From Zootoca vivipara (taxonomy: Eukaryota): a stretch of DNA of 64,000 nucleotides. Location: NCBI RefSeq assembly GCF_963506605.1, contig NC_083285.1, positions 34,782,001-34,846,000 of the forward strand. The letters run 5' to 3'. The position numbers and the translations under genes are program-made. Positions 1 through 44,104 of the stretch are shown here, piece after piece. Position 1 is the stretch's first letter; every line of letters begins with the position of its first letter. Below the pieces are notes generated by a model. That model saw nothing but the letters and a program-made list of their open reading frames with translations. It was not told the DNA's origin and made no database searches.

Positions 1-233
1 TTCTGTTGTGCAAGTGGAAGTCATTCTGTTTACATAATGATTGCATTGGATTCAATCCTCTGTTCTGGAAAATGTGCTATCACAAATGTCTGTATCTAGC
101 ATCCTTTGTCTAACAACTAATATGTCAATTAATGTTCCTGATCTTCTTCTATCCATAGTGAGTTTCTTGCCTTGAATTTTGCAATGGCTTCTTGCTCATA
201 GGGGTGGACTAACATTTCACCAGCTTTGAATGG

Positions 234-269
<36 letters not shown>
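234..269. repeat. (ATA)n microsatellite
   Basis: Perfect ATA run of about 12 units. Confidence 0.95.
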
Positions 270-799
270 GATGTATTTGAAGCTGTAGTCACAAAATGTT
301 CCTACTGAGTCTCAAAGATAAAAGGTATCTTTGTCAATCCACTCTTTGCATAGAAAAAGGAAATATTTTTCTTTTTAAGAAAAAAATGAAAAGAAGTTAA
401 AATTCTGTTCATTAAAATACAACAGCAGGACATCAATTGAGAATCAAGAGGATTTTTTCTCATACAAATGAAGCAATGTTGAACTTCTATGACATTCTGT
501 CAAGCTGATCATTAAGAGTTCTATTCATCTAAAATTCCTGGCTCCCTGGGTGTCTGCTCTGGGAGTTTCTCAATTTAGCATGCTGGAGCTGCATCAAAGT
601 TTAAACTTTAAAAAGTCTCTGGGGTCAGAAAGAGCTCTCCTAAGACATTGTCAAAAATGGAAAGGGTGGGTGAAGGTGTATATACGCTCACATTATTACT
701 CTTAAAAGGCTGCTCAAGCAAACTTTTTAACTGAGGACCCATAAACCCACAAGAGATCTCAATTAGAAAGTGGATCAGGTGTTCAGGCTGTCAATCTTT

Positions 800-970
800 G
801 TCAGGGCTGACATAAGGGCAGCACTCTGAGGTGAGTTGAAAGCCAAGGATTAAGAGCTGTGGGACAAAGCCAATAGTCAGGACCAAATAGCAAGTGAGGA
901 CCAGAGTAAGAATCTAGGAAACAAGATTGAAGAACAAGCCAGGAAGCAGGACTGAAGAACAAGCCAAATA
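800..970. mobile_element. Possible degraded LTR fragment (Gypsy-like)
   Basis: Starts TGTCAGGG, is purine-rich, and has an internal direct repeat GAAGAACAAGCCA. No matching 3' end or TSD found. Confidence 0.2.
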
Positions 971-1150
971 GTGATGGAAATTGAGGTGGTATACTGGCAT
1001 AAATTTCTTTTCTGCTGTTTTCATTGGGGAATCATGGGGAAACAGAAGCACACATGTGCAGAAAGAGTGAAAGATTAGAGACATTGTCCAATGATATTTG
1101 TAGTGTCACACCATGATTATTTAGCACCTCAAAGCCACGGTTCCATAACA

Positions 1151-1281
1151 AGGTTACCAGATTTTTTTCAATGAATTCTCAGACACTTTTCAACTTCCTA
1201 CTAAATAGATGGATGTTGTCAGGGGACTGATTTGTAAATCCGGGGACTTTCCCTGGGAAACGGGGACGTCTGGTAACCTTA
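1151..1281. mobile_element. hAT-type MITE (Tip100/Zaphod-like termini)
   Basis: TIRs AGGTTACCAGA...TCTGGTAACCT. Flanking 8-bp direct repeat CCATAACA at 1143-1150 and 1282-1289. Confidence 0.8.
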
Positions 1282-2189
1282 CCATAACACCTCATATCTT
1301 AGGAATTTGTCCGTACCCACCTACTGGCGTTTATTTACCAGAGCTAGATTAAATGTATTTCCATCAGAAGTTCTAAATGGTAGACTGAGAGGCATCCCTT
1401 ATCAGAATAGGCTTTGTTTATTTTCTCAGGACATCGATTGAATGAAGCATATCCTACTGTATAGTGGGCAGTATGAGAAAGCAAGGGATCAACTGGGATC
1501 AAACCCTGATTAGCAAATTTGCCAGAAAAATCTGAAGGAGGACAGGTCAAATGATATTACACTGACTGGCAAAGTTTCTTTCGGAGGTCACAAGAAACAA
1601 AGACCATCATGCTCTAGACATAACAAAATAACTACCTTGGTCTCTTTCTCCTGTTGTTTGGTTGTATTTTGTTTTGAAACTGTTTAGTGGGTCTATGGGC
1701 CACAATAAAGATATTTGATTATCGTAACACAACAGGTAATGATGTACGAAAGGAACATTAGAAAACAGAGCAGAAGCTCTAGTGTTGTATTCTAGAAAAC
1801 TAACACAATATTCCCCACATCTGCATATAGCCATTGGCTATTTGTTGAGGGCATTAAATGATGAAATCAAACCACAGGAATAGTCACTGTGTCCAAACAC
1901 CTATTATTTCATGCCAATTCTGCTTCTGATTTCCTCTGCAGTTATCAATGTAGTGAATTTTATTTCCCCCTTCATACCACCATTCTATGTGGGGCCTGGG
2001 ACTTGGAGGAGAACTTGTTTGTGTACCCTCTAAGGACTGTGAATTACACCCCACCCTCTTTGCAGAATAGGGGGGGCACAGAATAAATGTTTGGAAATAG
2101 GTAAACATTATGTGAATACTTTTCAAACTACATGATTTGAAGAAGGAACACGATTTAGCTTTTTTGAGGGGGAGGGGAGACACATTATT

Positions 2190-3321: not shown

Positions 3322-3380
3322 CTGTTGTTGTTGTGATGATGATGATGATGATGACGACGACAACAACAATGATGATGATG
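3322..3380. repeat. Compound trinucleotide microsatellite (GTT/GAT/GAC/AAC)
   Basis: Read directly from the sequence; it explains the poly-Asp ORF at 3284-3517. Confidence 0.9.
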
Positions 3381-3399
3381 TGGATTATGTGGGGGGGGA

Positions 3400-3640
3400 G
3401 GATGTTAGGCGAGTGGTAGTATGTCTGGTGGGGGACACATTGTGCTTCTTCTGGCGTGATCTCTACTTGCACTCGGCTCTCACCTGTAGCTCCGAATCAG
3501 CAGTGGCCACACCCTAGAAAACGACTTTGACTGGCTGGCTGAACCAGGTAAGGGTAGCCAAAGTGTCTCAAATCCTCAGTGAGTTAGGGCCTTTACCTGC
3601 ATACAAAGACAGGCTCTGGATCAATCAGATTTTAGTCTGC
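3400..3640 (+). mobile_element. 5' UTR fragment of an RTE-clade non-LTR retrotransposon
   Basis: Motifs GGCTCTCACCTG..GCTCC, GGCCACACCC and GGCTGAACCAGGTAAGGGTAGCC resemble recalled vertebrate RTE 5' ends. No ORF is retained. Confidence 0.55.
3451..3559 (+). ncRNA. Degenerate HDV-like self-cleaving ribozyme relic
   Basis: Interleaved P1 (about 3451-3457 with 3509-3515) and P2 (3476-3486 with 3545-3555, 10 of 11 pairs), P3/L3 AGC-TCC...GCC, a weak P4, and J4/2 GCTGAA. Confidence 0.5.

Positions 3641-3684: not shown

Positions 3685-3736
<52 letters not shown>
3685..3736. repeat. (TC)n(AC)n compound microsatellite
   Basis: Read directly from the sequence. Confidence 0.95.
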
Positions 3737-6366
3737 TTTTTAAACCTTACTTGCCATCTGTAGGACAAGGGCCCCAGATACTTCCCAACAGTGGGGATTG
3801 GGAATCCAACACCGGGCCATTGTTGTCTCTCCATACTCAAAGAAAGACACCTGAAGCTTCCTGTAGCCCCTACTGGGACACTTCTTTAAGAATCATATGA
3901 ATTTTCTTCTTAACAGGGTTATAGTCACATTCCCAGATGCATTTAATTCTGTGTCACATTCCCAAATGTATTTAATACTTTCCTGATGAAGATTTATTGC
4001 TCTTAATGCAACACAATCAATGCAATGCAAAAGAGCCTGATACTTGCATCTTCTTACACTGCATTTGGAAAAAGAATGTCCTGTAACACAGCATTCATAT
4101 TATTCCCTCCTGTTATTTATGATCCTGCAGCCGACATAAATAATGCATATGGAAAAAGATATGTCCAAATGATCTAAATAGCAGGAGATAAAAACACGAT
4201 ATAGTGCCCTATAGCTTATCACCTGACACATATGAAAACACTCTGGCAGAAGCACAATGTTTTTGTGGAAGATTCCTTCTGTTATAAGCACTTTTAATTT
4301 TCTGTTCTCAAATTGCTTTAAGACTATCAAGATTCAGTTGTAGAAGATGAGCTACCCCCTTCATTTTTAAAAAAGAAAGAAAGGAAAACAGTTTGTCTTG
4401 TCCTAAAAGCCGATTGTGTGTGTTGCTTGAAGCTGCTAAAGCTTTGAGTTGTATTTTATTCTGAAGAAAGATACTCTACAGTCATACTAATGTTCATGGA
4501 CCAAAAAGCACAAAAGGTCAAGGATAAAACACAGGTAATTGCTCATATACAGGTAGGAGCAAGTGAAAGTATAATTATATTTCCTCATCCTTGTGTGCAG
4601 CTAACGGGGCTATTCTGTATATTTATAGAATGGAGATTCACAGAATAATTTACATGATAAGGTCTTGCACTACTGGAGAAGTTATTAAAGAACCTCATAA
4701 ACTTCCCCTCTGAAAGATATATGGAGCAGTCTATCTTTGATAAAGAGTTGCTGGGATTGAATTATCTGCATGCATTCTAGATCCTTGATCTTTGGACAAC
4801 CTGCTAGTTGTAATGTGCAGCTAATATTTCTTCCAACTCACTCCACACTGCAAGTTGTTAAATTGGAGACATATTGCCTACTGACAGGTTTTGAATAGCT
4901 TGTAAAAATTATAGAAATCCTTGTACAAATCTTTGGGAAATTATGTCGTGGAGAAAGCAGAACTATTGACTGTGCCAGTTCTATAGATTTATGAAATAGC
5001 AGATTTGATCTTTAGATTCTTAATCAAAGCATGGTGGGGGGTGGGGGGGGGGAAAGGTGCCCTTTAATCATATGATATTTCAAATTCAGCCCTTCACAGC
5101 TACTGAAAGGGATATGATTGGTGCATATTAATTGCTTCTCTGCTAATTTCCAGACCTTGAACTCATTTGTATGATAAAATGTGTAATAATTTTAAATTTC
5201 TTTCAGATGGATTACAAAAATGTAAATGAAGAACAGCATAGGAGAAGGAATAAAAATTGCAGCTTTAGACTTCTACATTTCAAATTTATGATAATTTTTT
5301 AATGTTGGTGTTAAATACATAATCATATACATTTGGAAAGTGCTAAAATATACATCATTATGAAAAGCAATGCAAAACATGACAAATGTGTAGCATATTG
5401 TGCCTGGTTGTTTATAAAATAAGCCTGTGAAAATACTAATTGAAATCTAGCAGATGAAACAGCATGTTCTAAATTATGTTCAGTTGTTGGAAAGGGCTTG
5501 TTCTTGGAGATGATATTTGCTGGAATACTGGAGCTTTTTGATATTTCAAAATGGACCTGCTTTGATTCAGACTATGCTAGGTTTGATTAGCCATCTGCTA
5601 AGGTTGGGGGATCATATTTATAAAGTTCCTCTTGGGGGAAAGAAAAACTAAACCCAGTGACCCATAAAACCTTAGAAATGTAGAGGTGGAATAAGCCCTT
5701 GAAACCAATCCAATGCCCTGCACTAGAGAGAACTAAGGCATGGAACTGGTGGAACCTCCTTGCTTTGGTGAGTGAATGAAGTGATAACAAGGCTTTAATG
5801 TTTGTTTGTGACAGATTAGCATAGGGGAAGTCAGAGGATATGCAAAAGAAATCAGGAGGAGGCTAGCTCCTTCTTTGCTTTTGCTTGATGGAGTTCCTGA
5901 GTTAGCAGTTTAAATGGAAACATTCCTTTCCAAGATGGTTTTCCTTTCTAGTTAAAATCTTAAAGGTTGCGTTTCAACTGGCTGAAGTTGCACTTTTCTG
6001 GGCTGTGTAAGAATTAGAACTATGAAATCAGAAGCAAGCACCTCAAAGTTCAATGAGCTAAACTCACTGGAAACTACATGGGATTCTGGAGTGATGTTGA
6101 TCCTAGTAAACTGGGTGCTTTGTAGGTGTATGCCTGTAGTACCAGGTTAACACAGCTGCTTGTATTTTTGGAATTCCACAAGTGGTGAGCCACCGCAGAA
6201 AAAGCCCGTTCTTGCATTGCCACCCTCCAGACCTCTCACAGGGGAGACACAGAAAAAAGGGGCCTCAGAGGATGATTGCAGGGTCTGGATCAGTTTATAT
6301 GGGGAGAGGCAGTCCTTAAGGTATAGTAGCCCTAGCCATTTAAGGCTTTATAAGTCAAAACAAGTA

Positions 6367-6644: not shown

Positions 6645-6736
6645 CATAGCTGTCAAGTTCTCCCTTTTAAAAAAAGGGAAATTCCCTTATGCCGAATAGG
6701 ATTCCTCGCAAGAAAAGGGAAAACTTGACAGCTATG
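6645..6736. mobile_element. 92-bp hAT MITE
   Basis: TIRs CATAGCTGTCAAGTT...AACTTGACAGCTATG. 8-bp TSD GTGCAGCA/GTGTAGCA. Second copy at 40443. Confidence 0.9.
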
Positions 6737-7484
6737 GTGTAGCATGCTCAAATCATCTTGCCCCAGTGAGCAACCTAGCTGCCAAATTCTGCCAACTTCA
6801 GCTGAAGTTTCTAAACTGTCTTGAGAGGCAACCCTCTCATATAACATGTTGCAGTAATCTAACCTAGAGGTTACCAGAGCATACCAGAGAGAAGTTGGGC
6901 TATTGCTATCCCAACTGGGGCTCAGCTGCACCACCAGCTAAAGCTGATGGAAGTTGCTCTGCTCCACTGAAGCCACCTGAGGCTTAAGTGACAGCAGTGG
7001 ATGCAGAAGTACCTCCAAGCTGCGTACCTGCTCCTTCAGAGGGAGTGTAAGCCGTCAAGAGCTGTGTTTCATCAGCATCTTGCTGACAATGTATTCCAAA
7101 AGTCTGGTGACCCCACTCAGCAGTTTCATGTAGATGTTAAACAGCATGGAGGATAAAATTGAACCCTGAAGAACCCCACGTTGAAGGCTCAATGGGACCG
7201 AAGAGCACTCTCACTACATGTGGGTGTATAGAATATAGCAGAGTTAAACGATTCCTTGTTTGAGTTTACACAGCAGCAAGTGGATTGCTAACTCGTTTGA
7301 GTCCTTTTAATAAATTATGCCTTCTACCTTTCTGCCTTCTTGCCTTCCTGGTTGATAATCCCTTTTGTCCCTCTTAAAGAAAAATGCACATGAATCTGAA
7401 CGATAAGAACATAAACTACTTTACTGTCAGATTCATTGAATACATACTTAGGTTACATAGCATATAAACTATATACTAGATATT

Positions 7485-38927: not shown

Positions 38928-39851
38928 GAAATGGGAAACCGAAGAAGAGCAAACCAAAAGTACAATGATTAAATGGGCCCAAGATTTAGGGAAACCAATT
39001 ATGCTTAAAAATGGGAGAATTTGTGGCAAAGAGATATCAAATTTACACCAAATTATGTTTTAAAGAATATATTAAAAATGCAGCATAGATGGCATTTGAC
39101 GCCAGCAAAATTGCCCAAAATTCATAAAGGAACGAGTAATCAATGCTGGAGGTGCCAAAAGGAAGTTGGTACGTACATCCATATGTGGTGGCAGTGCGAA
39201 GACATCAAAGGCTTCTGGGACATGATTTATAAAGAACTAAAGAAGATCCTAAAATATTCCTTTACAAAAAATCCGGAAATATTCCTATTAGGAATGATGG
39301 AAAGTGACATCCAAGCCAAAGACAGATATATTGTAAGCTATGCAACAGTAGCAGCCAGACTCCTTGTAGTGAAAAATTGGAAAACCCAAAAAATACCAAA
39401 CAAAGAAGATTGGCAACTAAAAATGATTATGTATTATAATTTGGCGATTAAGTATGATGAAATTAAAGGAATAGGGGAGAAAGAGAAGGGAAAAAAATAG
39501 AAATTATTTGCGGATTACATTAAACAGTATGTAGGAAAAGCTGATCTCTTGGCAGACGTTTAAAGGCTCAAGTAAATAAACAAATGAGAAAAGAGAGAAA
39601 CAAACCTAGAAAGGAGGTATGCAGATAAATGTGGTAACTCATAATTGCAACATAGCAGAGGCTGAGAAGGAGAGAGGAAGGGGAAGGGATAAGTGGGAGG
39701 GCTAGGGAAAAATATATATTGGGGATTCAAATGTATTGGAATCATTACAAATGTCATTTTATCAATCGACCCAGTTTTACTTTTGTGTTTTATTTCTGTA
39801 ACTGTTAAAAAACCAATAAAGTTTTGTTTTTTTAAAAAAATTTTTTAAAAA
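38544..39851 (+). mobile_element. 5'-truncated L1 LINE (ORF2 C-terminus, 3' UTR, A-rich tail)
   Basis: RWHLTPAKL...CWRCQKEVGTYIHMWWQC is the L1 CCHC domain. AATAAA near 39815. 21-bp TSD AGAACTATGTTCCAAAGACCT at 38523-38543 and 39852-39872. Confidence 0.93.
38764..38927 (+). mobile_element. L2 3' end nested in L1 ORF2
   Basis: ALFREAFNV* followed by a UTR near-identical to 13320-13430 (reverse) and an (ATT)n tail. Confidence 0.92.
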
Positions 39852-42557: not shown

Positions 42558-43175
42558 CGTTGTTGTTTAGTCGTTTAGTCGTGTCTGACTCTTTGTGACC
42601 CCATGGACCAGAGCACGTCAGGCACTCCTGTCTTCCACTGCCTCCCGCAATGTAAGACTCATGTTCATAGCTTCGGGAACACTGTCCAACCATTTCATCC
42701 TCTGTCGTCCCCTTCTCCTAGTGCCCTCAATCTTTCCCAACATCAGGGTCTTTCCCAGGGAGTCTTCTCTTCTCATGAGGTGGCCAAAGTATTGGAGCCT
42801 TAGCTTCAGGATCTGTCTTTCTAGTGAGTACTCAGGGCTGATTTCCTTCAGAATGGATAGGTTTGATCTTCTTGCAGTCCATGGGACTCTCAAGAGTCTC
42901 CTCCAGCACCATAATTCAAAAGCATCAATCCTTCGGCAATCAGCCTTCTTTATGGTCCAGCTCTCACTTCCATACATCACTACTGGGAAAACCATAGCTT
43001 TAACTATGCGGACCTTTGTCGGCAAGGTGATGTCTCTGCTTTTTAAGATGCTGTCTAGGTTTGTAATTGCTTTTCTCCCAAGAAGCAGGCGTCTTTTAAT
43101 TTTGTGACTGCTGTCACCATCTGCAGTGAGCATGGAACCCAAGAAAGTGAAATCTCTCACTGCCTCCATTTCTTC
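42558..43175 (-). mobile_element. BovB (RTE) LINE, 5'-truncated
   Basis: 187-aa remnant with IKRRLLLGRKA..NLDSILKSRDITLPTKVRIVKAMVFPVVMYGSESWTIKKA. (CAA)-type tail. TSD CCACATAACGAT/CCACATAACAAT. Confidence 0.96.
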
Positions 43176-44104
43176 CCACATAACAATTACCTATTTCTTA
43201 TTTGGCACTTACTCAGAAGAATTAATAACTCAAGGGCAGATGTTACGGTGTCCAATTTTGTTAGCACGGGAGGGAAGAGAAAGGCTTGTTTTAACTCTCA
43301 CCATATAGCAAGCTACTGAAAAATCTGAATTGCACCATTAACTGCATGAACTCCATTGTTTTGAGTAGGACCTAAAATATGGAACTTTCTGCTGATCGGA
43401 TTCCACCAGTCCAGCGCTCAAGGTAAAGAAAAACTTGTGCAATATCAGATTTCCAGTGTAGAAAATCTATCTTTTACAATTTGTGTGTGTGTGTGCCACA
43501 ATATATTTTAGCAAGAAAGAAAAAAGATATTCAACTAATACCTCTCAATTTTATGAACAATGAAAAATGTCTTCAGGAAGATATCCATATTTCATTGCCT
43601 GCTGTTTCATTGTTCAAGTTCATTACATGCTCATTCATATCCAGTGTTCAAGAAATACTCTAATGTCATACTTAATAACACTGTATTCATAATTATGAGT
43701 AAAATGTTAAACCCAAAGGATCCCAGATAAAACTATTTCCTAAAGTAACAAGTCCTATTCATATGTTATGTTTAATGCATACTGTGGTGGGGGTGCAGCT
43801 AGCTGGCTTCCGCCGCTCCAGACCTCGATATATTCAGCTTATGTATTGACAAAAGGGCAATGGTTCTTTAAGGATTCAGAACACATGGAAGACACAAATA
43901 GAGGGAAGGGTGAAGATGTTATTAAATAGTTCAAAGAAAGCTACAAAACATAGTCACTATCTTATGCTGTTTCCGTCTTTGGTTGCTCTGGGAATCCTTT
44001 CTGCAAAGAAGGTGGCCTCAAAAGATGGTGATGGAGCTGTGCCTGGGTACAAGCACTTTCCATGGTCCAGCCTGCATAGAGGTCCCCACTAACAGAAGTA
44101 TCAT

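Follow-up and report, generated by a model that had tools for sequence, protein, structure and literature searches.

The window, i.e. the whole 64,000-nt stretch of Zootoca vivipara DNA that was analysed, holds on its forward strand a repeat remnant bordered by simple repeats on either side, a GAT/GAC/AAC tract at 3323-3380 and a CT followed by a CA tract at 3685-3737. Over 3400-3619, 190 of 249 alignment columns are identical to the majority sequence of the family to which the remnant belongs and 29 are gap columns, while past 3619 no further match to the family majority was found, the remainder of the element being absent. The following features were delineated:

3390-3619, forward strand: remnant, the first approximately 260 nt of a bipartite non-autonomous RTE-type element of approximately 750 bp (family alignment and column map)
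approximately 3390-3396, forward strand: family P1a and position of G1 (predicted cleavage site), decayed into a G run
3399-3475, forward strand: J1/2 domain with a predicted P1.2 helix and a 16-nt deletion near 3458-3460
3476-3487, forward strand: P2a (11 nt; 10 of 11 pairs with 3545-3555) and T3487, which is able to pair with A3543
3488-3490, forward strand: P3a, with G-to-A decay at 3488 (base-by-base check, family columns)
3491-3505, forward strand: L3, 15 nt, with 13 nt lost from the 28-nt L3 of the family
3506-3517, forward strand: P3b (3506-3508), P1b (3509-3515) and the P1.1 strand (3516-3517)
3522-3537, forward strand: P4/L4, with three of four core pairs in the family register
3538-3544, forward strand: J4/2 with the predicted catalytic C3539
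3545-3555, forward strand: P2b, pairing with 3476-3486
3556-3619, forward strand: further element 5' UTR, ending abruptly approximately 65 nt short of the CT/CA microsatellite

The initial annotation had read this stretch as a decayed HDV-like ribozyme with an unusually long L3 at the 5' end of an RTE retroelement, an interpretation which is partly supported overall; likewise, its observation of helices in HDV order in the window copy is confirmed in part. P2, P3, P1b, P4 and the AG of P1.1 had been placed correctly, P2 with a single mismatch (C3481xA3550) and with C3544 bulged beside the extra T3487-A3543 pair, P3 with two of three pairs (the first base of P3a is G in 61 of 64 copies), P4 with three of four pairs and P1.1 with one of two (A3516). 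Correctly positioned is also C3539, which sits in a C-U-G-A stretch ahead of P2b and aligns with the catalytic-position C, followed by N-R-A in J4/2, that 57 of 64 copies share with L090, a distant full-length element from a metagenome contig; G3541 is A in the family and G also in marine relatives. The reading of U3515 as partner in a G1-U wobble has to be abandoned, as the base is what CpG decay left of a G-C pair: the terminal P1b base and its 3' neighbour read CG in 17, CA in 19, TG in 17 and TA in five of 64 copies, which suggests that the ancestor likely possessed a G1-C pair and GG for P1.1, with T3515 and A3516 both being CpG-decay products. The family consensus restores a GGGGTGT P1a, a GGC P3a and, through the CpG pattern, the GG of P1.1.

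Taken by itself, the window copy is weak evidence and the fold is significant at the family level only. At the true site of P1a no more than five of seven P1 pairs form, P3 and P1.1 are incomplete, and the copy fails a strict HDV-like descriptor; a descriptor relaxed enough to admit it finds 225 sites across the window and also passes 52 of 500 shuffled versions of this stretch. The Vienna folding z-score of 3440-3570 is +1.47, no better than shuffles, and an Rfam scan of the window returned no ribozyme at E up to 10. Lesions affect P1, P3, P1.1, L3 and J1/2, in agreement with the earlier proposal that this copy is inactive; in R2 ribozymes, a missing L3 G or one mismatch in P1 was accompanied by loss of cleavage (PMC3774820; statements from the literature refer here and below to the portions of each source that were available). 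Judged from its sequence, the locus is likely an ordinary dead repeat.

The family is abundant and dispersed in the source genome, a search of which yielded 1310 first-look candidates, and the 40 that were scored show 76-91% identity. The copies share approximately 750 nt, at the end of which stands a (CAA)n tail (alignment of 26 of 54 oriented copies), and are built of a LINE 5' UTR and a LINE 3' end with the ORF absent. The 5' part comprises approximately 680 nt, the first approximately 420 nt of which, the portion seen in that partner copy, are common to the reverse transcriptase (RT)-bearing locus L167, and the last approximately 68 nt of the short element correspond to the final codons and the 3' UTR of the partner. 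Most paralogues do not lie upstream of an RTE ORF but are internally deleted elements of approximately 750 bp; the link to the ORF is provided by L085, L167 and L090. Outside CpG, divergence at core positions amounts to 7.4% for paired and 7.1% for unpaired positions; the equal decay of both indicates that selection does not maintain the fold in these copies. Six loci (L057, L065, L067, L076, L081 and L082) form a second short subfamily, in which the junction region is approximately 70 nt longer and includes the last codons of the partner, and the internal deletion therefore has at least two forms. In the minimum-energy fold the two halves of the element meet within a helix, with shuffles pairing as well in 12 of 200 cases for a narrow window and in 170 of 200 for the whole 5' half; the same comparison for L090 gave four of 200 for a long, gappy duplex.

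The partner LINE was approached through both ends of the short element. A 24-nt 3'-end motif has 149 exact matches, and one of 30 retrieved loci, L085, carries RT-coding sequence directly upstream of the shared 3' terminus. All of 39 further loci found with L085 match the RT or the C-terminal part of the L090 protein; 25 have the shared 3' terminus within the retrieved stretch and two (L167, L146) combine RT-coding sequence with an adjoining 5' end of the ribozyme side. The partner in the source genome is known from RT and C-terminal fragments alone; none of the 39 loci was found to contain a full-length copy with an intact frame. A pattern scan of metagenome contigs gave four matches, three of which display no likeness beyond the pattern, and the fourth, L090, is a full-length element with a single frame of 1096 codons encoding AP endonuclease (APE) and RT domains. 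Such an architecture is that given for RTE-clade elements, which possess a single ORF with AP endonuclease and RT, a very short 3' UTR with a simple-repeat tail and target site duplications (TSDs) of about 6-12 bp (PMC2887409). After the stop codon, approximately 60 nt are followed by (CAA)n, and TSD-like matches of 9-13 nt are present in a minority of copies. Among 120 homologues listed and their clusters no named RTE protein occurred. The RT-coding copies of the partner and the architecture of L090 support the RTE-type origin of the family as predicted in the initial annotation.

Other RTE-like sequences were encountered in the course of these searches. Loci L091-L120, the source-genome RTE closest to the L090 endonuclease, were considered as partner and rejected, their upstream sequence showing neither a family match nor a descriptor match. 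They constitute a second RTE-type family, which is decayed; its 5' UTR (approximately 700 nt upstream of the endonuclease match) is well conserved, differs from that of the first family and gives no HDV descriptor match; twister-type ribozymes have been mentioned for RTE 5' ends (PMC7761336). A young LINE family of the source genome has many intact 1036-codon frames, with 36% identity to the L090 endonuclease. Intact relatives in viral contigs were not found by protein search, and a pattern scan of viral contigs gave 59 matches. Seven loci with RTE-like coding sequence in prokaryote assemblies (L264-L270) are likely animal DNA carried into bins; the four of the seven that were scanned gave no descriptor match. 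For L090 no RNA holder was found. Upstream of the RTE on the L090 contig, opposite-strand RT- and RNase H-like frames (2-1809, reverse strand) resemble what we take to be a DIRS-type retrotransposon. In the window itself, the frame at 42618-43190 (reverse strand) is similar to an RT C-terminus, with 30% identity to L090, and looks to us like BovB, while the frames at 6653-6937 (reverse strand) and 39009-39500 (forward strand), which had no match in Pfam, resemble what we take to be CR1/L2 and L1 fragments.

At the family level, the CpG-aware majority sequence and L090 both match the strict descriptor for a nested double pseudoknot of P1, P2, P3, P1.1 and P4, a fold which covers the first approximately 195 nt, and shuffled controls did so in two, zero, zero and zero of 1000 cases. 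The cores of the family and L090 differ by eight substitutions and two deletions that break none of the modelled pairs: P4 displays a G-C/C-G swap, and in the L3 hairpin one whole C-G pair is lost and one C-G is replaced by U-G. Random placement of the changes keeps all pairs in 303 of 200,000 trials when 22 positions fixed by the search pattern are excluded, and in 74 of 200,000 without exclusion. The sample for covariation consists of the one distant full element, L090, and of short contigs chosen for likeness to L090, from four runs of three studies (two coral metagenomes, one marine metagenome and one coded organism). Aligned to L090, these contigs list no change in P2, P3, U20/C21/C22, G25, P1b, GG or J4/2, a conservation of the core that is partly built in through their choice by likeness. 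Their changes are limited to loops, linkers and the L3 hairpin, where U-G becomes C-G and some contigs possess an additional U-A pair in the position of a C-G pair of the genome family, with the one exception of C4054G in P4 (three contigs), for which no partner change is listed.

Thermodynamic and model-based searches are less favourable. The whole 195-nt majority has a folding z-score of -0.87, not more stable than shuffles, and the core alone of -2.33; in addition, P3 reaches into P1b in the core fold of minimum energy and thereby competes with P1. The Rfam search that had been proposed was negative not only for the window but also for L090 and four good copies, which matched no family at E up to 5. 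Among individual copies, 11 of 93 pass the strict descriptor, six of these only through a second P1a-like 7-mer at family position 10, whereas L032, L046 and L199 do so from position 1. A pattern search of the source genome for a further ribozyme family that has a different P1 was negative, as six of six matches belong to the same family, and none became apparent with the L090 core as query, the top hits being viewed as a group. Of the earlier proposal that this lizard carries an RTE family with such a ribozyme, the HDV-like fold at the family 5' end is supported, with cleavage as a prediction of the model.

The position of P1a differs from that initially assigned. The site at 3451-3457 forms four of seven pairs and falls inside the J1/2 domain, whereas the family P1a begins with the element itself, approximately 60 nt before that site; there, the window sequence still pairs to P1b at four of seven positions from 3390 and at five of seven from 3391-3393. 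The neighbouring internal site 3453-3459 was likewise rejected as P1a, since none of 64 copies pairs there at seven of seven positions (best six of seven, in one copy) and L090 differs. Conservation across 64 copies begins at the 7-mer GGGGTGT, the exact complement of P1b, with which L090 starts as well; G is found at position 1 in 32 of 64 copies versus 12 of 64 one base upstream. Position 1 is also the modal start (0.30 of 81 copies, out of 113, the 32 without an anchor being excluded), although in 34 copies picked regardless of their 5' end starts at position 1 (0.24) and position 7 (0.22) are about equal. TSD-like matches scoring at least 9 occur in five of 40 copies versus two of 192 controls and end, relative to G1, at 0, 0, +1 and -2, and at +11 in one truncated copy. 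An element that starts exactly at G1 is what cleavage predicts, and no other indirect evidence speaks as well for the proposed self-cleavage as this coincidence of the boundary with G1.

Approximately 95 nt separate P1a from P2a, and a long P1.2 helix is predicted in this J1/2 domain for the family (z -1.67) as well as for L090 (z -2.72), with the second P1a-like 7-mer as one of its strands. In marine relatives the same core seems to be preceded by a J1/2 that is much shorter (the contig ends before L090 3990), so the length of J1/2 would vary while the L3 hairpin stays.

As initially described, the window copy has an L3 of 15 nt that starts with TCC; the suspicion that a long L3 characterizes the family was correct as regards a long loop, and incorrect as regards its size: the family L3, which contains an inner hairpin, is 28 nt long in 54 of 64 copies and 26 nt long in L090. 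The family L3 opens with UCCNNG, taken by us to match HDV positions 20-25; two further nucleotides lead to a hairpin of 6 bp, capped by a 7-nt loop, and a single G precedes P3b. Position 6 of L3 is G in 56 of 64 copies and in L090, and the family hence possesses the U20 and G25 of the reverse wobble that HDV-like ribozymes require in L3 (PMC6326823, PMC3774820). In the HDV and CPEB3 ribozymes L3 comprises 7-8 nt (bioRxiv 2022.09.22.508989), from which the family and L090 depart by an inserted hairpin of 5-6 bp. The deletion in the window copy removed this hairpin and displaced the G25 equivalent. A subfamily with a short L3 was sought among the 40 scored candidates and the 64 copies and was not found; in a single copy, L008, loss of the complete hairpin has reduced L3 to 11 nt, near the canonical size.

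Several other explanations were considered. If the family fold is real, cleavage could take place at the second 7-mer (position 10; window 3399-3405), or in both registers: in the family and L090 this 7-mer is perfectly complementary to P1b, and it pairs at seven of seven positions in 22 of 64 copies and provides the best P1a register of the window copy (six of seven). Against this, the 9-nt leader, which an RNA beginning at position 10 would lose, is kept in both distant families, position 10 shows no peak of copy starts (0.04 of the 81) and TSDs end at position 1; furthermore, P1.2 takes up the second 7-mer in the folds of J1/2 for the family and L090, and the last base of this 7-mer is C in some marine contigs. 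We regard this reading as quite unlikely. Nor do we consider it probable that the fold was conserved for another role such as translation start or binding of the RTE protein, with the L3 hairpin abolishing cleavage or making it dependent on a partner, even though the 20-nt insert, relative to the short L3 of HDV and CPEB3 (bioRxiv 2022.09.22.508989), adjoins the active site and an IRES-like role has been proposed for such ribozymes (PMC6765202). Against such a role, the catalytic-position C, U20/G25 and the P1.1 bases are maintained between distant families, and the element begins exactly at G1, as expected from cleavage.

That the window copy is an active short-L3 variant kept by the host is hardly credible. 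While P2 and C3539 survive, P3, P1.1 and P1 are broken, and the copy diverges outside CpG from the family majority by 15.4% (26 of 169 positions); the median of 64 copies, a set biased to good copies, is 8.1% with a range of 2.1-18.6%. Its 15-nt L3 sequence is private, being absent from the other copies among the 64, and its nearest paralogue among the 40 scored candidates reaches 83% over 152 nt.

We therefore consider it highly probable that 3390-3619 is a decayed fragment of a non-autonomous element assembled from both ends of an RTE-type LINE, that the ancestral 5' end folded into a predicted HDV-like ribozyme with an extra hairpin in L3 and that this copy is likely inactive. The active element would have been read from host transcripts, as extrapolated from published R2, L1Tc and RTE cases (PMC6765202, PMC3774820, PMC5786205), whereupon C179 (window 3539) would cut the RNA just before G1 and free the element. 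The long J1/2 domain may hold P1 and P2 together, as in drz-Agam-2-1, while the first six bases of L3 would keep the HDV order of U20, C21, C22, two free bases and G25; the hairpin would be accommodated 3' of UCCNNG, adjoining P3, where the core likely tolerates an insert. The released RNA could subsequently be copied by the protein of the partner LINE through the shared 3' end.

More tentatively, and with somewhat more doubt than confidence, these sequences may represent an active, widespread subclass of HDV-like ribozymes with a 5-6 bp hairpin in the catalytic L3, which heads RTEs from marine-associated animals to a vertebrate and is missed by Rfam models and descriptors. If so, it would have been overlooked because these models and descriptors assume an L3 of 7-8 nt, and they would undercount such ribozymes in animal genomes; the insert in L3 would add a novel module, structural or protein-binding, next to the active site. 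In HDV, the active site is built by L3, which has been treated as short and fixed; a conserved insert would reveal an unexpected tolerant site, and a hairpin kept between distant RTE families while varying by whole base pairs is relevant to ribozyme specialists. With L090, a natural intact sequence suited to a direct cleavage test is at hand.

RTE ribozymes and bipartite non-autonomous RTEs have both been published. HDV-like ribozymes with the same helix order are located at the 5' ends of RTE, R2, R4, R1, Ingi/L1Tc and LOA elements (Ruminski et al. 2011, as cited in PMC6765202, PMC5786205 and PMC3774820), and the family presented here shares with the retrotransposon ribozymes a P1a at the first base of the element, UCC..G in L3, GG in P1.1 and C-N-R-A in J4/2, and with those of RTEs the location at the 5' end of an RTE-type element. 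In its build from a 5' UTR and approximately 70 nt of a 3' end with no ORF it resembles RTE-N2_Lch, RTESINE1/2, WALLSI3 and Bov-A, from which it differs by a longer 5' part of approximately 680 nt; in bipartite RTEs, retention of the 5' end has been linked to the ribozyme (PMC5786205). The large structured J1/2, the P1.2 helix and the extended P2 of 11-12 bp recur in drz-Agam-2-1, where the structured J1/2 and extended P2 speed up cleavage and, in the available text, no L3 insert is mentioned (PMC4908430). Fungal HDV variants demonstrate that cleavage can proceed with a Watson-Crick pair at the cleavage site and with an irregular P2/P3 junction, and these variants escaped strict descriptors; their changes concern P2-P3 and P4 and not an L3 hairpin (PMC5640933). 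A literature search for an insertion in L3 found no description, which the primary RTE paper (Ruminski 2011) or supplements may nevertheless contain. Compared with the 7-8 nt L3 of the retrotransposon ribozymes in these sources, it is the L3 of 26-28 nt with its hairpin of 5-6 bp, in length and structure, by which the family departs from the systems described so far.
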